Shown in pieces: positions 28,117 to 63,943 of a stretch of 64,000 nucleotides of DNA (position 1 is its first letter; each line of letters begins with the position of its first letter). The notes beneath the pieces were generated by a model, which had not been told where the DNA came from, searched no databases, and saw only the letters and a list, made by a program, of their open reading frames with translations. Source of the stretch: an uncultured bacterium (GTDB lineage Bacteria; JAGRBM01; JAHCIT01); NCBI GenBank assembly GCA_964565925.1, contig CAZMGV010000006.1, positions 16,176 to 80,175 on the forward strand, read 5' to 3'. Both the position numbers and the translations under genes were made by a program.

Positions 28117-28409
28117 TTGTCTCCACAGCGGGGATGTCGCTGGTTGTCAACGATTGGCGACACCCGATAGTTACTGCCGGTTTACAGTTCATCGTTTACG
28201 ACGCAAACGGACGTAAGCGGCAACTGCTCCGGCAAGCACCAGCTTAACTTAATGATATTACAGAAGAAATCCCGTCCTATAACGTGATTTCGACTAACCA
28301 GGTCCAGGCTGGCATACCGGCTGCAGTTACTCCTGCAGCTCCGAAACCTGCGTTCCTTAATGTTCTGGGCTCTGCCGCCGGTTTCGAGATCGCAAGGGAG
28401 AAGTGCTTT

Positions 28410-28628
28410 ATGACCGGAACCCTGACGCTAAACGAACCGCTGCGCCATGCCGCCCTCCAGGTGCTCACCGGGCGGGATACCCATCACACGCAACGCACCA
28501 TTCGCGACGCCCAGCCCAGTGTGGAAAACCTCCGGGCAAAGGACCCCGTCACCTACCAGCTGGTGAAAAAGGCGATCATCGAAATGATCCGCCGGAACGT
28601 GAAGCCCAAGCGGCTGCGTTCGAACTGA
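28410..28628 (+). CDS. Small hypothetical protein (72 aa)
   Basis: GGGAG RBS before ATG 28410, genome-typical codons, followed by a terminator; the track extends it to 28284. Confidence 0.55.
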   Translation: MTGTLTLNEPLRHAALQVLTGRDTHHTQRTIRDAQPSVENLRAKDPVTYQLVKKAIIEMIRRNVKPKRLRSN

Positions 28629-53025: not shown

Positions 53026-53388
53026 ATGGGAAAAAGGGTTCTGCTTGTGGATGACTCGGTCACCACGGCAAAACAGCTGGAAAGCATCATCGTCGGACTG
53101 AACGGGTTCGAGATCGTCGGTCATGCCAAAAATGGCGCCGAGGCTGTGAAAATGTATAAGTCGCTCAGTCCGGACATCGTCTGCATGGATATCGTCATGC
53201 CGCTGATGGACGGTCTTCAGGCAACCCGTGCCATTCTTCAGCTCGACCAGAACGCCAAGGTTGTCATGATTTCCTCGCTGGGCGGCGTGGGCGACAAGGT
53301 CGTCGAGGCGCTGAAAGTGGGCGCCAAGGACGTGATCGCCAAGCCCTTCGAGCCCGAGAAGATCAAGCAGACGCTGACCTCTCTCTGA
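53026..53388 (+). CDS. Single-domain response regulator (CheY-like)
   Basis: VLLVDDS, PDIVCMDIVMP.MDG, MISS, IAKPF. Confidence 0.95.
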   Translation: MGKRVLLVDDSVTTAKQLESIIVGLNGFEIVGHAKNGAEAVKMYKSLSPDIVCMDIVMPLMDGLQATRAILQLDQNAKVVMISSLGGVGDKVVEALKVGAKDVIAKPFEPEKIKQTLTSL

Positions 53389-53440: not shown

Positions 53441-54292
53441 GTGGGTGTCAAATTTTTCGGCCAGTTCCTGCTCGAGAGGCAACTTGTCACGGCCCAGCAG
53501 CTTGTAGCTGCGGTCGAATATCAGCAGTCCCAGAACCTGAAGCTCGGCGACTACGCTGTGAAAAAGGGTTACCTTACCAAGGACCAGTCAGCCCAGATCA
53601 ACCGCCTTCAGCAGCAGAAGGATCTCAAGTTCGGCCAGGCGGCCGTGGAACTCAACCTGCTCACGGCCAAGCAGGTGGACGAGCTGCTCCTCATGCAGCA
53701 GAACGACCATATCTATCTGGGCGATGCCGTGGTCCTGAAGAACTACGCCACCCGCGCGAAGGTCGACGAAGCCCTCAAGGCGTTCAAGGAAGACCAGAAG
53801 ATCTACGAACTGCAGGGCGGTATTCCGGTACCGAGCGAACTTCAGCTCACCGACACGGTCCGCGTGTTCGTGGACATGACCCAGAAGATGCTGCTCCGCA
53901 TGGGTTCGATCGAAACGAAGGTGACCGGTAACGAATGGATTACCGGTTCGGTGATGCCCCCGGGTTTCGCGGCGCTGATCCGCTTCGAGGGCGGCATCAA
54001 GGTGTCCTATATTATCGGTATCAGCGAGACGCTCGTGAACACGCTCGGCCAGCAGCTGCTGGGCAAATTCTACGATGCCAAGGACCCCGCCGTACGCCAG
54101 GACGCCGTCCAGGAGTTCTGCAACATCGTTACCGGTAACGTCGTGGCGCGGCTCGCCCAGATGGGTATCCGTTGCGAGATCCTGCCGCCTGAACTGATCG
54201 GCGGGGCGGTATCACTGGGTACCGGACGGGCGCTGAAATACGACATTCATACGCCTGACGGACAGCAGGTGTTCTTGGCGCTCGTCCTGTAA
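53441..54292 (+). CDS. CheX-like phosphatase with four N-terminal MshEN-like repeats
   Basis: C-terminal DAVQEFCNIVTGN (CheC/CheX E-x2-N motif); N-terminal repeats with Gly at 7, 36, 65, 94. Confidence 0.8.
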   Translation: MGVKFFGQFLLERQLVTAQQLVAAVEYQQSQNLKLGDYAVKKGYLTKDQSAQINRLQQQKDLKFGQAAVELNLLTAKQVDELLLMQQNDHIYLGDAVVLKNYATRAKVDEALKAFKEDQKIYELQGGIPVPSELQLTDTVRVFVDMTQKMLLRMGSIETKVTGNEWITGSVMPPGFAALIRFEGGIKVSYIIGISETLVNTLGQQLLGKFYDAKDPAVRQDAVQEFCNIVTGNVVARLAQMGIRCEILPPELIGGAVSLGTGRALKYDIHTPDGQQVFLALVL

Positions 54293-54403
54293 CAACCGTT
54301 CCCTTTACAGCGCAGTCCGTGCAATTTGTCGAACCCGTCCACGGGTGGCAGGTGACCTTTTACGGTCAAGCGGGACCTGTCATTGCCCGCCGCCTGTACG
54401 CCT

Positions 54404-54430
54404 AAACAGAAAGCCCTTTCGGGCTTTTTC
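54404..54430. terminator. Bidirectional intrinsic terminator
   Basis: AAAGCCC-TTTC-GGGCTTT; T-rich tails on both strands; GAAA tetraloop on the minus strand. Confidence 0.8.
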
Positions 54431-54586
54431 GTTCATTTCCGGGATTTTCCGGGTTCTTTGGCGAGAGGGGGGGGATGTGGGAGGGGGAGCGTTGCAGCGA
54501 AGCTGATGCTTCTAGGCAGGATTCTTTTGCTCAGTGGGGAGTTTTGAAGTTTCTAACACTCCCCCTCCACGTGAGGGTATAACTGT
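54404..54586 (-). ncRNA. Candidate sigma54-dependent small RNA (about 180 nt)
   Basis: Bounded by a sigma54 promoter and a terminator; long stem GTGGAGGGGGAGTGTT / AACGCTCCCCCTCCCAC; C-rich tail; only a 15-codon GTG ORF inside. Confidence 0.55.
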
Positions 54587-54596
54587 GTTCATTTGT

Positions 54597-54612
54597 AGCA
54601 GGAACCGTACCA
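54597..54612 (-). promoter_or_regulatory. Sigma54 (-24/-12) promoter
   Basis: TGGTACG-GTTC-CTGCT versus consensus TGGCACG-N4-TTGCW, with invariant GG/GC and correct spacing. Confidence 0.7.
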
Positions 54613-54629
54613 TGCACGCGTTTGAGTCA

Positions 54630-54642
54630 TTTCAGTCACTTA
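54630..54642. promoter_or_regulatory. IHF-like site
   Basis: TTTCAGTCACTTA versus WATCARNNNNTTR (one mismatch), at about -44 to -56 of the sigma54 promoter. Confidence 0.55.
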
Positions 54643-54665
54643 GCTGCAGTGCGTCTTAAACTTCG

Positions 54666-54724
54666 TGCGCCAAAATAGCGCACCGCTCCACGGTCGAGCA
54701 TTTTACAAACTCCATTTTGGAGCA
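54666..54724. promoter_or_regulatory. Two NtrC-like enhancer boxes
   Basis: TGCGCCAAAATAGCGCA (54666-54682) and AACTCCATTTTGGAGCA (54708-54724) versus TGCACCA-N3-TGGTGCA; centres 42 bp apart. Confidence 0.55.
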
Positions 54725-54928
54725 CTGCGGCACTTATCCCCAGGATTTATCTCACAGCAGGTTCAAAAGAGAGATTGCAGTTGTTGACGATCAGCGATAA
54801 CCTGTGCTGTGCAATCCTGATTTATTCAAAGATTACAATTGGTTATGACAGGTCAAATGCAGGTAGACATCCACGTTTTTATAAGCTTCAAAAATGTTTA
54901 ACTCCCTGAAAATACAGGATTTCAAAAT

Positions 54929-55255
54929 ATGGGCGAGTCAGATTCCAATTCGACGCAAAGCGCCAAAAATCCGTCGAGTGTCAATAATTCGACATCTCCG
55001 ACAGATCTTTTGAAGAAAGCTGAGTCGCTTTACAACAGATTCGTAAACAACCAGATCGAGCACGTCATGGCTCCCGGAGAGAGCAATCTTTCTGCCGCCA
55101 TCGAATTTTTCCGCAATCCGGTCAATCAGCTGGAGACCGTCGTCCTGCTACAGGAAAGCGCCAGGCTGGGCGCGCCCCTGCTGAAAGCTCTGTTAGACCC
55201 CTTTAATGTACCTGCTGCGCGTCAAAATGTTGATAAGGATGAAAACGGAAAGTAA
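54929..55255 (+). CDS. Hypothetical protein (108 aa)
   Basis: Open frame with AGGA RBS, lower GC than the core genes, no recognised motif. Confidence 0.45.
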   Translation: MGESDSNSTQSAKNPSSVNNSTSPTDLLKKAESLYNRFVNNQIEHVMAPGESNLSAAIEFFRNPVNQLETVVLLQESARLGAPLLKALLDPFNVPAARQNVDKDENGK

Positions 55256-55339
55256 CCATAGCGCCGTTCTTGGGACATTTTGGATTGGGAAATTCTCGGG
55301 CGTTTTTCCCACTGACGTTCGCAATGCGGGTGCGCATTC

Positions 55340-55816
55340 ATGTCTAACTATGTCGATACGGCGCTGGATGCCCTCAAACATGCGGGGCATCGGCTCACGG
55401 AGCAGCGACGCGTAGTTCTCGAAGTTCTCTCCACGGCACGGGTGCCGCTGACACCGGCCGAGCTTCACGAACGGGTCAAGGCCCGCGGCAGGTCGATGGA
55501 TCTGGTCAGCGTTTACCGGATCCTCGAGACGCTCCAGGATAACGGCCTTGTCCACCATGTGATCGCCAACAACAGCTTCAAGGCCTGCTCCCACTATTTC
55601 GAGAGCTCGGAAGGCCGCAAGCCCCACGGGCATGAGCACAGCCACGACGAACAGTGTCATCATCTGGCGATCTGCACCGAGTGCGGAAAATCGTACGAGT
55701 TCGACTGCCCCCAGCTCGAAGAGATCGCCGAAGCCGTTACCAGGGACAGCGGGATCAAGATCAGCCGCCATCTGCTCGAATTCCAGGGCGTCTGCAAAAA
55801 CTGCAAGGCGGCCTGA
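55340..55816 (+). CDS. Fur-family transcriptional regulator
   Basis: G.RLT.QR..VL..L, SVYR.LE.L...GLV, His-rich HGHEHSH, HHLAIC..CG, GVC..C. Confidence 0.93.
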   Translation: MSNYVDTALDALKHAGHRLTEQRRVVLEVLSTARVPLTPAELHERVKARGRSMDLVSVYRILETLQDNGLVHHVIANNSFKACSHYFESSEGRKPHGHEHSHDEQCHHLAICTECGKSYEFDCPQLEEIAEAVTRDSGIKISRHLLEFQGVCKNCKAA

Positions 55817-55843: not shown

Positions 55844-58270
55844 ATGACCGGGACTCCTGAAAAGCTGCGCTTCGAACTGTCGGTACACGACGTCGTCGCG
55901 CTGGCGTCCGCCGGATCGTCGCGTCCCGTCGGCGCGCCCCTGAGCCGCGCGCGGCTCGGGCAGGAAGCCCACACCCGCTACCAGCAGGAAACCGCCGCGC
56001 GGCCCGGGTTCCGTAAGGAAGTGTCCGTTTCGGTCGAAGCCCCCGCGCGAGGTCTTCTGCTCGCCATCGACGGGCGCATCGACGCCGTCGTTACCGAACA
56101 GAACCTGACCGTCATCGAGGAGATCAAATCCGTCTTCGTAACGTCCCGCGAAGCCGCCCGCCTGGATCCCGCCGAACTCACCGACTGGGCCAATCAGGCA
56201 CGGCTCTACCAGTGGATGTGGGAAAAGAGCGGCCTGGGGCCGGCGCGGTCCCGGCTCGTGCTGGCGTCGCTGCTCGACGGCGGCTGGCACGCGATCGATC
56301 TCATTGAAACCGGTGACGCACTCGACCGGCATGTGCAGTCGATGCTGGACCGCGCCGCCGGACGGCTCGAACACGATCTGGAGATCGCCGAGCAGCGCCG
56401 CGCGCTCGTGCCGCGCCTGCAGTTCCCCTTTGAAGACTACCGGCCCCACCAGCAGGACCTTGAAACCGCCGCCGGGCAGGCCGTGAAATCCGGCAGCGTA
56501 CTCATTGCCGAAGCGCCCACGGGACTCGGCAAAACCGCGGCCGTGCTCGCCGGTGCGCTGCGAACCGTCCTGTCGCAGAACCGGAAACTGTATTTTCTCA
56601 CCGCCAAGGGCACCCAGCAGAAGATGGCGCTCGAGACGCTCGAAAAAATCCGGGATCAGTCCGGATTTGGCACCGCCGATCCGCTGCGGATCGTGCAGAT
56701 CCGGGCGAAAGAAAAGATGTGTCTGAACGATGTGATGGTGTGCGACCCGGAGTTCTGTCCCTACCTGAAGGATTTTCCGGAACGGCTCGAAAAAACCGGT
56801 ACAGGGACTGCGCTCATGCAGAAGGGTGTCGTGACCGGAGACGACCTTCTGGAAATCGGCCGCGCGCAGACTCTCTGCCCGTTCGAGATGTCGCTCGAAA
56901 TGGCCTGGCAGTCCGAGGCCGTCACCTGTGACTACAACTACGCCTTCGACCCGGACGTCATGCTGTGGGAACTGGCCGACCCCGATCTCGCCGGCCAGTC
57001 GGTGCTGGTCGTGGACGAAGCCCATGCACTGCCTTCGCGTGCGCGGGGCTACCGTTCGCCGGTACTGGAAGCGGCCGAGCTCGAAAAGCTCGCCGGACTC
57101 GTGCTCTCGCCGTCGATAGACGAGCCGGTGAAAAACCGCCGCGGCAAAGTGATGTCGGCCGGCCTGTTCGACACGCCGGTGGAGCGGCTCGTGCGGTCAC
57201 CGGCCGCCCGCGAACTGTCGCGGGAACTCCTGAACGCCGCCCGGATCGTGAAGAACCCCGACCTCTGCGGAGTCACCGACCCCGGCCAGCGCGGCACCTA
57301 CCGCGCCCGGCCGGAACCAGAGCAGTTCGAAAAAATCCGCGCCCGCATGGAGCGGTTGTTTCTGGACTACCTCGTGGAAAAAAAACGCGAAGGCGTCACC
57401 CGTCCGCACGACCCGGCAGCCGAGGGGTTCATGCTGGTTTCGAAATTCGCTCGTACCCTCATGGCCGCAGGCGACGAAACCGAGGCGCTCTGGACGCCTG
57501 AGTTCGGCGCGAAACTGTCGCTTCACTGTCTGGACGCATCGCGGTTTCTCGCTTCCAACTGGAGTTCCGCCGGCGCGGCCATTCTCATGTCGGCGACGCT
57601 GTCCCCGGACGACTATTTCCACACGACACTGGGGCTCCCGGCAACTGCCACCAGATTGACGTTCCCCTCGCCGTTTCCCGCCGAGAATCTCACCGTCGAA
57701 ATCGAAAGCGATATATCCACGGCGTTCCGCGACCGGACGAAATCGCTCCAGCCGCTTGCCCACCGGTTGCGCGAGTTTCTGGAAAAACCCGGCAACCGCG
57801 CCGTCTTCGCGCCGAGCTTCGACTACCTGTCGCACATTCACGATGCCGTGGGTCCGCTCCCCGGCAAGCGGTACCTGATCCAGGGAGACCGGATGAACGA
57901 CGCCGACCGGGAGTTCTTCTTCCGCGAACTGACGGCCGGGACCGGCGACATCGTTCTGTGGGCGGTGCTCGGCGGAATTTTTGCCGAAGGGATCGACCTG
58001 CCCGGCGATCACCTGATCGGGGCGGCGATCATCGGACCGGGACTGCCCAAACCGGACCCCGAGCGGGAGCTCGAGAAAACCTATTGGGACGACCGGATGC
58101 ATGGGTCGGGGTTCGACTACGCCTATCTTTATCCCGGCATGATCCGGGTGATTCAGTCAGCCGGACGGCTCATCCGTTCCGAAACCGACACGGGCGAACT
58201 GCTTTTAATTGATAAGCGGTTCGCCCAGCCGGGCTACCGGAAACTGTTCCCCGAATGGTGGCGGGTCTAG
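55844..58270 (+). CDS. XPD/DinG-like Fe-S helicase fused to an N-terminal PD-(D/E)XK nuclease domain
   Basis: G..AH, GRIDAV, EEIKS; EAPTGLGKT, four Cys, DEAH, SATL, GGIFAEGID, QSAGRLIR. Confidence 0.9.
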   Translation: MTGTPEKLRFELSVHDVVALASAGSSRPVGAPLSRARLGQEAHTRYQQETAARPGFRKEVSVSVEAPARGLLLAIDGRIDAVVTEQNLTVIEEIKSVFVTSREAARLDPAELTDWANQARLYQWMWEKSGLGPARSRLVLASLLDGGWHAIDLIETGDALDRHVQSMLDRAAGRLEHDLEIAEQRRALVPRLQFPFEDYRPHQQDLETAAGQAVKSGSVLIAEAPTGLGKTAAVLAGALRTVLSQNRKLYFLTAKGTQQKMALETLEKIRDQSGFGTADPLRIVQIRAKEKMCLNDVMVCDPEFCPYLKDFPERLEKTGTGTALMQKGVVTGDDLLEIGRAQTLCPFEMSLEMAWQSEAVTCDYNYAFDPDVMLWELADPDLAGQSVLVVDEAHALPSRARGYRSPVLEAAELEKLAGLVLSPSIDEPVKNRRGKVMSAGLFDTPVERLVRSPAARELSRELLNAARIVKNPDLCGVTDPGQRGTYRARPEPEQFEKIRARMERLFLDYLVEKKREGVTRPHDPAAEGFMLVSKFARTLMAAGDETEALWTPEFGAKLSLHCLDASRFLASNWSSAGAAILMSATLSPDDYFHTTLGLPATATRLTFPSPFPAENLTVEIESDISTAFRDRTKSLQPLAHRLREFLEKPGNRAVFAPSFDYLSHIHDAVGPLPGKRYLIQGDRMNDADREFFFRELTAGTGDIVLWAVLGGIFAEGIDLPGDHLIGAAIIGPGLPKPDPERELEKTYWDDRMHGSGFDYAYLYPGMIRVIQSAGRLIRSETDTGELLLIDKRFAQPGYRKLFPEWWRV

Positions 58271-61122
58271 ACCGTCTCCACCACCCGCGTACCGGCGCGG
58301 CGGTCGTGGGCCGTTTCCGCGCCGCCCACCAGCAGCGGCAGACCGCCCCAGCAGAACAGCAGGTTGAAAGGCCAGAGCCAGAAATAGCGGCGGATCACCA
58401 GCGCCGGAGTCGCGTCGGCACCGTCGCGGGCCACGATCTTCAGCTTCATGATCATATCGCCCGGGGTCTGGCCCACCAGCGAAACTAGCCCCACGTAGAA
58501 GATACCTTCCACGAGGGTCTTTAAAATCAGCAGCACCCACCAGGTACGTGCCAGCCAGGCGCCCGGTTCGTGAAACAGGGAGAACTCCGCCCCGGTGAAC
58601 TTGTCGGCGGCCGTCACAAAAAGGATGACCGCGAAGAACGTCATGCCGGTATCGATGAGATACGAGAGTGCGCGCTTGAGTACAAGCTGCCGGGGAAGTG
58701 TAAGCCTGGGTTTCATGTTTCTGGCCCACGCACCGGCCGAATGATCCCTGCCGGCCGTGCGCATGCGGGCCGCCGTGCGGACATCGTCCAGCTTGCCCGT
58801 GAGTCCCATGCCCACCGGCGTATCCAGCCGGATGCCAATACCCGACGCGCTCAGCACATCGGCCGACTGGAGCTGCGACTCTGGCGTCATCTCCGGACGG
58901 CTCGTTCCGAGAGGGAAACTGATCTGGTCGGGGTCTTCGATGGCGTGAGCGCTGATGCGCGTCGCCCCGCCGAAGGCATCGGCCATCTCGCCCTGGGCCG
59001 TGTCGAGTGCCATTGCGCCCGGGAACCGGCCGTCGTTGAACGGCACGATCGGGTCCGGGTTCGGAATGACCGGCGCGTCCAGTTTCTGCGACATGTCGGT
59101 GATTTCGTCGAAGATCTGTTCGATCCGTCTTTCGGGCGGCGTCCAGGACGGCATGCTGAGGTTGCCGGTGTTCTGTGTCGTCGCCGCGACCATCGCCGCC
59201 GCCGGCATGGCGGCCGCTTCGGGCGCAGGCAGGGCGCCTATGTTCGGATCGAAACCGTCGAACGCGGAAGGAATAGAGACCTCTTCGTCACCGTGTCCGC
59301 CGCCGCCGTGCCCGTCGTCATTCATATCGTCGCCAGCATCGTTATCAGAATCGTCGTCGCGGCCCTGGTCTCCGCTGCCGTCACCATCATCATGGCGGCG
59401 GTCGCTGTACCGGTCATGGAGGTTGTATTCGTCGGCGTCGGCCTGTTCATCGCCGTCCGCCTGAAGGATTTCAGGAAACAAGGTCCGGACCGGAGCCGGG
59501 CCGTCAGCCAGTATCACCGGTGCCTCTGCGACAGGCTCGCCCGCCACACGGGCGGCGATGTTGTCGCTGATTTCGTCAATATTTCCGTCGGTATTTCCGT
59601 CGATATTCTGAGCGACGCTGGCGAAATCGGTCATCGACGTTTCAGCCGTCGGCGACGGAGTCACGTCGAACATCTCTTCGGCGGTCTTCGCCTTTACGGC
59701 CATGGCCATGGCCGGCGTTTCGGAGGAGGCCTGAATGACCAGCCGGGTGAAAGTGTCGTCGCCCAGATTTGGTGACGGCTCTGCCGTTACAACGGCAGGT
59801 ATTTCAGCCGGAACAACGGCCAATTCAGCCACCGGTTCCGGCGTCTTTTCATTCGGATCGATCACCCTGCCCGCTCCGCGGGTATCGAGCATCATCTCGT
59901 CGGGGCGGATCATCGGGTTCGACACGTCGAACTCGTACTCGTAAGCCGATTCGGGCAGAACTTCGACCGGCTTCGAGGCGTCAGCCGTTTCACGGGCCGC
60001 CGTTTCGGCAGCGAATTTCGGCACAATCGGCTCACCGCCAACCGGCCGGATTCGGGGCAGTTCCACCTTCGGCAGGTCGATCCTGGGAACTTTCAGTTCG
60101 GGGAGCGGTTTCTCGGGTGCGGCAAGCACCGGCGGCTTCGGGGCTTCGATCGGCTTCGGAGCGGCGGGCGCCGGGGCCGGATGAAAACTGACCTCGCTGA
60201 TGTCGCCCAGGGACTCCATTGAGACTGGCGAGATCGCCGGTTTTTCCGAACCGGCGGGCGCGGCGGCGACCGGTACAACGGCCGGTGCCGTTTCGAGCTT
60301 GTCCGCCATGACCCGCACACGGGGTTTCGTGACCGGAGCTGCAGCAGCGTACTCCGGCTCTTTAGGAGTTGAGATAATGTCGGCGTTCTTCTGGCCGCTG
60401 GCGACTTCGGGCGAGAGCGGCGCCGGAGCCCGCAACTCGATACCTTGCATGGAGGGCGCCGGGCGCTCGATGCGCGAGAACGACTGCTCGTCGAAAGGTA
60501 CGGGCCGTTCTTTGACGGTTTCGACGGCGGCAGGCTCAGCAGCGGCAGATTCGATAGCCGCAGCTTCCGGGAACGCCTTTTCGGCACTGATAACCGACTG
60601 TTCGTCGACCGGAATAGTTTCGGCAGCCGTAACGGGCGGAGCGGTTTCGGAAACGGCTGCCACCTGCGCGGCCAGCTGTTCGGCTTTCGCTCTGCGCTTG
60701 CGTTCCCGGCGGGAGATTTTGGGCTTTTCCGGTTCCACAGCAGCGGCAACCGTTTCAGCGGTCATCGTCGGAGCGGATTCCACCGGCGGCTGTTCGGTTA
60801 CGGCCAGTACCGGAGAAGACAGTTCAGCAGCAACCGGTTCAGATACCGGTTCCGGTGCGGCTTCAACCCTGGCTTCCACCACGGCCTCTACGGCAGTCGG
60901 TACATCAGCCACCGCCGGTACAGGCGCGGCAACGGCTTCGGCCGGTGCCGCAACTTCAACCGGCACAACGGCTACTGCCGCGGCGGCCAGCGCGGGGGGG
61001 TTGAGTTTTTCGTCAATGGTGATCTGCTGGGCCGACGGTTTCGCGTCGCCAAGTGCACCACCGCACTTCGGACATGTGTCGATCTGTTTGAAATAGAGAT
61101 AACTGCAGGCAGGACAACGCAA
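58267..61122 (-). CDS. Zinc-ribbon / long low-complexity linker / RDD-domain membrane protein
   Basis: N-terminal CPAC-x10-CPKC; C-terminal RALSYLID...GQTPG...KLKIV...HDRRAGTRVV; TTG start. Confidence 0.85.
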   Translation of the reverse strand: MRCPACSYLYFKQIDTCPKCGGALGDAKPSAQQITIDEKLNPPALAAAAVAVVPVEVAAPAEAVAAPVPAVADVPTAVEAVVEARVEAAPEPVSEPVAAELSSPVLAVTEQPPVESAPTMTAETVAAAVEPEKPKISRRERKRRAKAEQLAAQVAAVSETAPPVTAAETIPVDEQSVISAEKAFPEAAAIESAAAEPAAVETVKERPVPFDEQSFSRIERPAPSMQGIELRAPAPLSPEVASGQKNADIISTPKEPEYAAAAPVTKPRVRVMADKLETAPAVVPVAAAPAGSEKPAISPVSMESLGDISEVSFHPAPAPAAPKPIEAPKPPVLAAPEKPLPELKVPRIDLPKVELPRIRPVGGEPIVPKFAAETAARETADASKPVEVLPESAYEYEFDVSNPMIRPDEMMLDTRGAGRVIDPNEKTPEPVAELAVVPAEIPAVVTAEPSPNLGDDTFTRLVIQASSETPAMAMAVKAKTAEEMFDVTPSPTAETSMTDFASVAQNIDGNTDGNIDEISDNIAARVAGEPVAEAPVILADGPAPVRTLFPEILQADGDEQADADEYNLHDRYSDRRHDDGDGSGDQGRDDDSDNDAGDDMNDDGHGGGGHGDEEVSIPSAFDGFDPNIGALPAPEAAAMPAAAMVAATTQNTGNLSMPSWTPPERRIEQIFDEITDMSQKLDAPVIPNPDPIVPFNDGRFPGAMALDTAQGEMADAFGGATRISAHAIEDPDQISFPLGTSRPEMTPESQLQSADVLSASGIGIRLDTPVGMGLTGKLDDVRTAARMRTAGRDHSAGAWARNMKPRLTLPRQLVLKRALSYLIDTGMTFFAVILFVTAADKFTGAEFSLFHEPGAWLARTWWVLLILKTLVEGIFYVGLVSLVGQTPGDMIMKLKIVARDGADATPALVIRRYFWLWPFNLLFCWGGLPLLVGGAETAHDRRAGTRVVETV

Positions 61123-62889: not shown

Positions 62890-62905
62890 GGTTCCACGTG
62901 GAACC
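62890..62905. other. parS site
   Basis: GGTTCCACGTGGAACC, perfect palindrome matching the ParB-binding consensus tGTTtCACGTGaAACa / GTTCCACGTGGAAC. Confidence 0.88.
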
Positions 62906-62925
62906 TCCCCCTCCCCCTCCCCCGA

Positions 62926-62941
62926 CGTTCCACGTGGAACA
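62926..62941. other. parS site
   Basis: CGTTCCACGTGGAACA. Confidence 0.88.
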
Positions 62942-63005: not shown

Positions 63006-63785
63006 TCAGACCCGGGGGTCGTGACGGACCGGAACGCCCTGCTTGCGCAGGAACGCCCGCACCTGGCCCACGGTCATCTCGCCGAAGTGAAAGACGCCGG
63101 CCGCCAGCGCCGCATCGGCACCCGCCTGGGCAAGGCCTTCGTAGAAATGCTCGACTTTGCCGACCCCGCCCGAGGCGATCACCGGTACCGGCACCGCCTG
63201 CACGATGGCGTGGGTCAGTTCCAGATCGTAACCGTCGCCCGTGCCGTCCCGGTCCATGGAGGTAATAAGGATCTCCCCTGCCCCCCGGCGCGCCATCTCC
63301 CACGCCCAGGTGACCGCGTCGAGACCGGTCGCCCGGCGCCCTCCGTGGGTGAACACTTCCCACTTGGCGGGGTTCGATTCCTTGTCCCGGCGGGCGTCCA
63401 CGGCGACGACAATCGCTTGCGACCCGAAGGCGAGCGCCGCCTCTTCCACCAGACTGGGATTCTCGATGGCGGCCGTGTTGATCGACACCTTGTCGGCACC
63501 GGCTTCCAGCAGCCGGCGGATATCGGCCACCGACCGCACGCCGCCGCCCACCGTGAGCGGCATGAACACCGTTTCCGCCGTCCGGCGGACGACGTCCAGG
63601 ATGATGTCACGCTTTTCGTGGGAAGCGGTGATGTCCAGAAAACAGAGTTCGTCGGCCCGCTGCTCGTTGTAGGCCTTGGCGACCTCGACCGGATCTCCGG
63701 CGTCTCGGAGGTTTACGAAGTTGACCCCTTTGACGACCCGGCCGTCTTTCACGTCGAGGCACGGAATGATCCGCTTGGCGAGCAC
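63006..63785 (-). CDS. hisF: Imidazole glycerol phosphate synthase cyclase subunit
   Basis: [63 protein letters not shown]. Confidence 0.98.
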
Positions 63786-63927: not shown

Positions 63928-63943
63928 TGTTCCACGTAGAACA
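63928..63943. other. parS site (one mismatch)
   Basis: TGTTCCACGTAGAACA inside GATGTTCCACGTAGAACATC. Confidence 0.78.

Follow-up and report, generated by a model that had tools for sequence, protein, structure and literature searches.

The window analysed here is a 64-kb stretch of DNA (64,000 nucleotides) from an uncultured bacterium (GCA_964565925.1, contig CAZMGV010000006.1, positions 16,176 to 80,175). On its minus strand, an intergenic locus at 54586-54404 corresponds to a predicted primary transcript of about 183 nt, which would start at an A (54586) and finish at the end of a U tract, the 3' end being placed from a terminator-like hairpin. Upstream of it lie a sigma-54-type promoter, a partly conserved block and three 17-bp dyads resembling the sites of NtrC-family enhancer-binding proteins. 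The locus sits between a convergent gene encoding an MshEN-CheX protein and a divergent open reading frame (ORF) of 108 aa, the latter followed by genes for a Fur-family regulator and a helicase. From the anatomy of the locus and its conservation in relatives, we consider it highly probable that this is the gene of a sigma-54-driven non-coding RNA.

The features of the locus are kept together in six distinct sequences, which represent at least four species-level lineages of uncultured bacteria and about 10 independent assemblies. When genomes were scanned with the CheX protein, only two close loci were obtained, L001 and L002, which belong to metagenome-assembled genomes (MAGs) of uncultured bacteria. 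In metagenomes, an invariant 20-mer led to a single true homologue, L028; two other matches of the 20-mer (L026 and L027) fall inside coding sequence and are due to chance. Look-ups of orthologues of the CheX and Fur-family proteins added L032, L036, L033-L035 and L040-L045. The MAGs GCA_026129095.1, GCA_964621525.1 and GCA_964606035.1 carry the element, as does the 221-kb contig of the window; the contigs originate from Logan assemblies of the runs SRR14271334, SRR14271333, SRR26372209, SRR14117728 and SRR23375770/1 and from JGI 3300009351 and Ga0268299. The most distant lineage, L033, corresponds to GCA_026129095.1 and is labelled Deltaproteobacteria bacterium at NCBI. In the alignments, the conserved parts appear as islands amid otherwise unalignable intergenic sequence. 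We built a covariance model, R1, from the conserved core (129 model positions; 54586-54459, minus strand). It finds exactly one copy, scoring 132 to 153 bits, in every found locus that covers the corresponding intergenic region, whereas 23 distant CheX loci and L037-L039, which are of Bdellovibrionota type, yielded none. A distant blastn search of the plasmid collection gave no match either. So far, the RNA is restricted to a narrow uncultured clade labelled Deltaproteobacteria.

The -24/-12 element of the promoter, TGGTACGGTTCCTGCT (54612-54597, minus strand), has its GG at 54611-54610 and its GC at 54599-54598, ten bases apart, as in the sigma-54 consensus TGGCACG-N4-TTGCW. It is the sole match to TGGYACG-N4-YTGCW in the window, where 0.07 matches would be expected by chance. 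The versions found in the homologues are TGGTACAGAACATGCT, TGGCATAAAACGTGCT, TGGTACGGAACCTGCT, TGGTACGGAATCTGCT and TGGCACGAATAGTGCT; the GG, the GC and their spacing are invariant across the six sequences, while at least five spacer positions vary. Taking the C of the GC as -12 places the +1 at A 54586. Both the element and this start had been proposed in an initial annotation made from the letters of the window, and their coordinates turned out to be correct. The stretch from -11 to -1 varies. Conservation sets in at 54584, 2 nt past the predicted +1, with AGTTATACCC, and runs for about 127 nt. No sigma-70-like promoter was called upstream of the RNA by the promoter scan. Elsewhere in the window, a second sigma-54-like match, TGGCATACCGGCTGCA, was seen on the plus strand at 28310-28325, at or within the start of an ORF of 114 aa (28284-28628). 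It has no visible activator boxes in its vicinity and is probably a chance match.

The three dyads are centred at -130, -106 and -88, within the distance of about 80 to 150 bp from the start at which enhancer-binding proteins have their upstream sites. Box 1, TGCTCCAAAATGGAGTT (54724-54708, minus strand), and box 3, TGCGCTATTTTGGCGCA (54682-54666, minus strand), are those already pointed out as NtrC-like in the initial annotation. Both are real, but a third one between them, the imperfect dyad TGCTCGACCGTGGAGCG (box 2; 54700-54684, minus strand), with its conserved right half TGGAGCG, had been missed. All three boxes are conserved among the homologues. Box 1 and box 3 are always 42 bp apart, and 70 bp (in L001, 71) separate box 3 from the TGG at -24; the sequence is conserved in neither interval. 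Box 1 is identical in five of the six homologues. In L033 it reads TGTTCCAACTTGGAATC, with a symmetric double change from CTCCA..TGGAG to TTCCA..TGGAA that keeps the dyad, which is the behaviour expected of a site read by a dimer. Only 0.75 matches to the loose motif TGCNCNA-N3-TGGNG would be expected in the window, but there are five, three of them within the 57 bp of the boxes.

Directly upstream of box 1, another block, GGATAAGTGCCGCAG (54725-54739, minus strand), is conserved in five homologues, with one substitution in L002 and L028, and is degenerate in L033. Between the boxes and the promoter, from -57 to -39, lies the partly conserved block CTAAGTGACTGAAATGACT (54643-54625, minus strand), in which TAAGT is invariant among homologues. 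The initial annotation placed an IHF-like site here. A partly conserved block does exist at this position, but its resemblance to an IHF site, judged by eye, is weak, since the plus-strand TCAgTCACTTA has one mismatch to TCAA-N4-TTR. The conserved spacings, together with a core that starts at the predicted +1, are, as read from the alignments, the signature of a geometrically constrained promoter and a functional transcript.

The body of the RNA is better conserved than a neighbouring gene, with a pairwise identity between lineages of 73 to 95% in the core against 62 to 82% in the coding sequence of the Fur-family gene next to it. Folding of the 187 nt from 54586 to 54400 gave -60.4 kcal/mol (z = -4.6), a stability that none of 200 shuffled sequences reached. 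RNAalifold predicts a 14-bp stem, GGAGGGGGAGYGUU/AACGCUCCYYCUCC, around an interior of about 64 nt that contains an invariant GAAGC/GCUUC hairpin. In the window, the G-rich 5' arm of the long stem is GGAGGGGGAGUGUU (54568-54555, minus strand), its 14 pairs having 100% of cells paired, and the C-rich 3' arm is AACGCUCCCCCUCC (54493-54480, minus strand). The stem of about 16 bp reported in the initial annotation is thus real, being composed of this 14-bp core, a bulge and 2 or 3 further pairs. The inner hairpin, GAAGC-AUCA-GCUUC (54512-54499, minus strand), has an invariant stem and a variable loop. Both main helices can pair completely in all homologues. In the long stem, four pairs show variation, each on one side only, and the six single substitutions involved all give G-U or U-G wobble pairs.

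Outside the helices, two conserved stretches are predicted to be single-stranded. The 5' end, ACAGUUAUACCCUCAC (54586-54571, minus strand), with the invariant AGUUAUACCC, is a candidate seed; the predicted probability that its 16 nt are unpaired is about 0.9 for all of the six homologues but L033, where it is lower. The C/U-rich tail, AUCCCCCCCCUCUC (54476-54463, minus strand), a C/U run and a candidate anti-Shine-Dalgarno seed, is predicted to be unpaired over 12 to 18 nt in all six. Beyond it, the sequence is no longer alignable between homologues. Of the C-rich tracts for which the initial annotation proposed an unpaired state, the tail therefore holds throughout the homologues, but the ACTCCCCACT tract occurs nowhere but in the window and, as ACTCCCTCACT, in L036, the closest relative. 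The internal tract ACUCCCCAC is not conserved, nor is the CCCGGAAA direct repeat, also listed in that annotation, which is absent from the other homologues. An alternative hairpin, GGGGAGU/ACUCCCC, can be formed in the window and in L036 only and is not a feature of the family.

At the 3' end, the hairpin AAAGCCC-GAAA-GGGCUUU followed by CUGUUU (54427-54404, minus strand) is shared, in the opposite sense, with the CheX operon. Hairpin-plus-U terminators occur in four of the six homologues, and L036, L002 and L028 each have their own, unrelated one. The RNA always adjoins a convergent gene, so there is no downstream gene for which it could be the leader. The initial annotation also saw a terminator shared with the convergent CheX operon. 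This holds in the window, but seems to be an accident of this genome, since in L033 the convergent neighbour is a RibD_C gene. No conserved ORF was found, and no ORF of at least 10 codons is common to any two lineages. The locus thus has its own promoter, terminator-like hairpins in most homologues, an intergenic position and no shared ORF, in six sequences, as expected for a stand-alone small RNA (sRNA) gene.

The RNA is very probably undescribed. The known sigma-54-dependent sRNA families with which it was compared (Qrr, GlmY/GlmZ, CrcZ and others) are those in Rfam release 15. An Infernal comparison with Rfam, already suggested in the initial annotation, gave no family match: at gathering thresholds, the sole match in the whole window is a tRNA elsewhere, and with E values of up to 10, the region 54100-55300 and the L033 copy gave only chance matches to microRNAs and unrelated families (E >= 0.58). 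One of these, to mir-3047, is based on the alternative hairpin mentioned above. The earlier impression that the RNA resembles no recognised sRNA is supported by this result and by the lack of a conserved ORF.

We suggest the following model, in which the individual steps are predicted from the anatomy of the locus. The region 54586-54404 would be an independent gene with a non-coding RNA of about 180 nt as its product, and its transcription would begin at the sigma-54 promoter. An NtrC-family enhancer-binding protein would bind as dimers to the boxes at -130, -106 and -88, probably assemble there into an active oligomer and open the promoter, while bending of the DNA over the block from -57 to -39 could bring it to the closed complex. 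The RNA would expose a free 5' end of 16 nt, a 14-bp stem enclosing the 64-nt interior with its hairpin, a free C/U tail and a species-specific 3' hairpin. By prediction, both the C/U-rich tail and the ACCCYC at the 5' end stay unpaired across the homologues, less clearly so for the 5' end of L033, and in this they resemble the unpaired C-rich stretches of sRNAs with an anti-Shine-Dalgarno action. The RNA would most likely act in trans by base pairing. Either the invariant AGUUAUACCC of the free 5' end or the C/U tail, or the two together, would then bind to G-rich ribosome-binding regions, as supposed in the initial annotation, on mRNAs from other parts of the genome and alter how these are translated or how stable they are. 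With base pairing included, we hold this full account to be moderately probable.

Several results weigh against parts of this model. Zero two-sided compensatory base-pair changes were found among the homologues, and a shuffle control for covariation was uninformative because the homologous sequences are too similar. The fold therefore rests on thermodynamics and on the compatibility of the substitutions rather than on covariation. Further alleles reached through Fur-family orthologues brought hardly any additional sequence diversity and did not help the covariation test. Related genomes, in which the initial annotation proposed to look for a conserved promoter and a covarying stem, provided the former in six sequences but no covarying pairs. 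At the 3' end, the U tract is interrupted on the minus strand, and a consensus scan called the hairpin on the plus strand only, for the CheX operon; L001 and L033 have no clear terminator. The hairpin with a GAAA loop proposed as the terminator in the initial annotation does end at 54404, but on account of its interrupted U tract it is a plausible but imperfect terminator for the RNA.

The activator raises a similar difficulty, as a motif search of the window and of all fetched loci, translated in six frames, detected no GAFTGA, ESELFG or RpoN box. The boxes have the 7-3-7 dyad layout of the Escherichia coli NtrC box, TGCACCAnnnTGGTGCA, a layout also used by other NtrC-family enhancer-binding proteins. 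They fit TGCNCNA-N3-TGGNGCA and agree with the NtrC box, in its E. coli consensus, at roughly 8 to 11 of 14 specified positions, deviating at the fourth and fourteenth. In the E. coli box, the triplets of GCA..A and T..TGC are the most conserved parts (PMC8743547), whereas the boxes found here read GCT or GCG and AGT, AGC or CGC in place of GCA and TGC. As the layout is shared but the triplets differ, it is justified to call the predicted activator of the three dyads an NtrC-family protein, but not to call the RNA nitrogen-regulated. Nitrogen limitation, to which the initial annotation had pointed, is one candidate among several for the activating signal.

Targets were also searched for in the window. 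The start regions of five neighbouring genes (108-aa ORF, Fur-family, helicase, REC and CheX) pair with the RNA at chance level and were dropped as candidates. No G-rich motif complementary to the tail precedes an ORF in the 64 kb, and no convincing target emerged from a duplex scan of the whole window. Apart from the RNA itself, the tail pairs best with a G-rich loop downstream of hisF, whose duplex energy of -33.2 kcal/mol does not make it a clear outlier, the runner-up having -29.0 kcal/mol. This search space is about 1-2% of a genome, so the failure to find a target says little. The sequence around this loop has a structure of its own. Two perfect 14-nt palindromes, GTTCCACGTGGAAC, flank the minus-strand tract CGGGGGAGGGGGAGGGGGAGG at 62891-62940, just downstream of hisF (63006-63785, minus strand), and a third near-copy, GTTCCACGTAGAAC, lies upstream of hisF at 63929-63942, making three matches against 0.28 expected. 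When transcribed, the two palindromes and the tract would form a 14-bp stem with the G-rich stretch exposed in its loop.

An alternative is that the RNA is real and sigma-54 driven, but binds or titrates a protein, or sponges another RNA, instead of pairing with mRNAs. We consider this unlikely, although it would agree with the absence of a target in the window (itself a matter of 64 kb only) and with the extent of conservation, which spans nearly the whole 129-nt core, including the interior (CUUCAA, CUGAGCAA and CCUGCCUAGAAGC), and not one short seed. An internal near-repeat, CCUGCCUGAGCAA and CCUGCCUAGAAGCA, found in four of the six homologues, could moreover represent paired protein sites. 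On the other hand, the loops have no GGA motifs as in CsrB/RsmZ, CA-rich repeats as in CrcZ are lacking and Rfam gives no match; with its roughly 180 nt and only one copy of each motif, the RNA would also be small for a sponge.

We also considered, as a speculative idea with a rather small chance of being right, that the RNA belongs to a new class of enhancer-dependent riboregulator. Its G-rich arm, GGAGGGGGAG, is Shine-Dalgarno-like, and its 3' arm and tail are anti-Shine-Dalgarno-like, so that together they could form a switchable internal duplex of both. The linkage to the Fur-family gene would then couple a two-component/sigma-54 signal to metal homeostasis, maybe via G-rich elements, of which the (GGGGGA)3 loop located downstream of hisF would be an example.

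It is improbable that the conserved block is a regulatory region acting at the DNA level, for instance of the divergent operon of the 108-aa, Fur-family and helicase genes, with no stable RNA being made. The element does stay by the Fur-family and helicase genes when its other neighbour changes, and compensatory changes are absent, both of which speak for this reading. However, the core lies downstream of the promoter elements and points away from them, 340 to 470 bp from the start of the divergent gene, and its conservation begins at the predicted +1 of a sigma-54 promoter on the minus strand. Every substitution in the stem retains pairing, the fold has the low z value given above, and four homologues have their own hairpin-plus-U terminators at a matching distance.

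Even less probable is that the promoter serves antisense transcription or transcriptional interference against the REC/MshEN-CheX operon, the RNA sequence itself being without function. RNA and CheX gene do face each other in the window and in four other homologues, and in the window the two share a terminator that is imperfect on the minus strand. In L033, however, the convergent gene is the unrelated RibD_C gene and the CheX locus of that genome has no copy of the RNA; interference alone would not need the strong conservation of the RNA body. Finally, the idea that the locus encodes a small protein is extremely improbable and a coding function was rejected, since the 15-codon GTG ORF noticed in the initial annotation (VLETSKLPTEQKNPA as translated; RNA positions 28-75) is present only in the window, its start codon being GCG in the other homologues, and every frame is broken by indels of 1 or 2 nt, leaving no ORF shared among homologues.

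As a sigma-54-driven RNA, the locus has known counterparts. Such sRNAs (Qrr, GlmY, CrcZ, NrsZ, Pxr, CJnc230) are often central to quorum sensing, carbon and nitrogen balance, development or flagellar assembly, and two of them, the RpoN-dependent GlmY and CrcZ, act by sequestering proteins. To our knowledge, the well-studied ones all come from cultured Proteobacteria, Campylobacterota or myxobacteria. They form an established and recurrent kind of regulator, as illustrated by Qrr (PMC10162802), CJnc230 of Campylobacter jejuni (PMC11187230) and Pxr (PMC5568312). The present finding would be a further example of this kind and brings no new principle. It would add a fully specified example from an uncultured lineage, in which the promoter, three activator sites, a putative bending site and the RNA are all conserved. 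The box motif also gives a concrete handle for finding the cognate activator and its regulon in MAGs.

Qrr RNAs are about 100 nt long and Hfq-dependent, and qrr1 adjoins luxO. The RNA described here is longer, present as a single copy per fetched locus, not located beside an activator gene and without a match in Rfam. It shares with the Qrr RNAs of Vibrio the sigma-54 promoter, the short non-coding transcript and the upstream sites for an NtrC-family enhancer-binding protein, which in Vibrio is LuxO (PMC10162802). By phylogenetic neighbourhood and promoter type, the nearest known system is Pxr of Myxococcus xanthus and other myxobacteria, also a small RNA with several stem-loops, from a lineage of deltaproteobacterial grade, restricted to a narrow clade and fixed in its intergenic position (PMC5568312). 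Pxr, however, has 108 nt and three stem-loops and lies directly downstream of the gene of its presumed activator, nla19 (PMC5568312), whereas our RNA has one long stem around a large interior and no gene for an enhancer-binding protein nearby; the two are set apart by description, and the negative Rfam result is no formal argument against their homology. If the boxes were true NtrC sites, the closest functional analogue would be NrsZ of Pseudomonas aeruginosa, a nitrogen-regulated sRNA that is induced through NtrB/C and is described as a processed RNA (PMC4253122); it has no sequence or covariance-model match here. CJnc230, GlmY and CrcZ have activators, layouts and modes of action unlike those of the RNA found here, and no covariance-model match. 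A purely functional analogy exists with RsaE/RoxS and IsrR of Firmicutes, which also have several unpaired C-rich stretches that could pair with G-rich ribosome-binding sites (PMC6158497, PMC9410917). IsrR belongs to an iron (Fur-type) circuit (PMC6158497, PMC9410917), and our RNA is genetically linked to a Fur-family gene. These RNAs belong to other phyla, show no homology and are controlled by repressors at their promoters, in contrast to the sigma-54 promoter described here.

Regarding the genomic neighbourhood, the plus strand carries, before the locus, a his gene cluster, a small ORF without domain match, a gene for a REC-domain protein (53026-53388) and the MshEN-CheX gene (53441-54292), whose product has an N-terminal MshE-type motif for binding cyclic di-GMP (NF053729, E = 1.8e-17) and a CheX domain. 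The his-REC-CheX arrangement is retained in a Bdellovibrionota MAG, with 47% identity. In the window and four other homologues, the RNA is convergent with the CheX gene. In L033 it lies between the RibD_C gene (convergent) and the Fur-family gene, and the CheX operon is found elsewhere (L029-L031), without the RNA. As CheX is not adjacent there, the stable linkage is with the Fur-family and helicase genes, and the sharing of a terminator with CheX is incidental.

On the other side, the divergent ORF (54929-55255, plus strand) encodes 108 aa without any Pfam or NCBIfam match. Five of the six homologous loci retain it and have motifs in common, among them STQ..K, DLY.RF and FFRNP..QLE; in L033 it has shrunk to a 40-aa ORF. 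A word search of database proteins with the 108-aa sequence returned only itself. Between the boxes and this gene, AT-rich motifs of the ATTATAAYYA type (54790-54900 in the window) were seen in several homologues, for example CCATTATAATCATTAATGATATCAG in L002. Judged by eye, they could be an operator of the Fur-family regulator. The gene of this regulator (55340-55816, plus strand) encodes a protein that stays below the cut-offs of the Fur, Zur and PerR models. It is always followed by the gene of the helicase (55844-58270, plus strand), with an extra 178-aa gene in between in L033. The helicase is an XPD/Rad3/DinG-like protein of 808 aa with DEAD_2, HBB and Helicase_C_2 domains and an N-terminal region resembling PD-(D/E)XK nucleases. 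Downstream of it, on the minus strand, a gene for a 951-aa protein (58267-61122) is also kept in the relatives. This protein has an N-terminal zinc-ribbon-like CxxC..CxxC, a C-terminal RDD domain and, between them, a very long low-complexity region rich in Ala, Pro, Glu and Val, together with a stretch rich in Asp, Gly and His.

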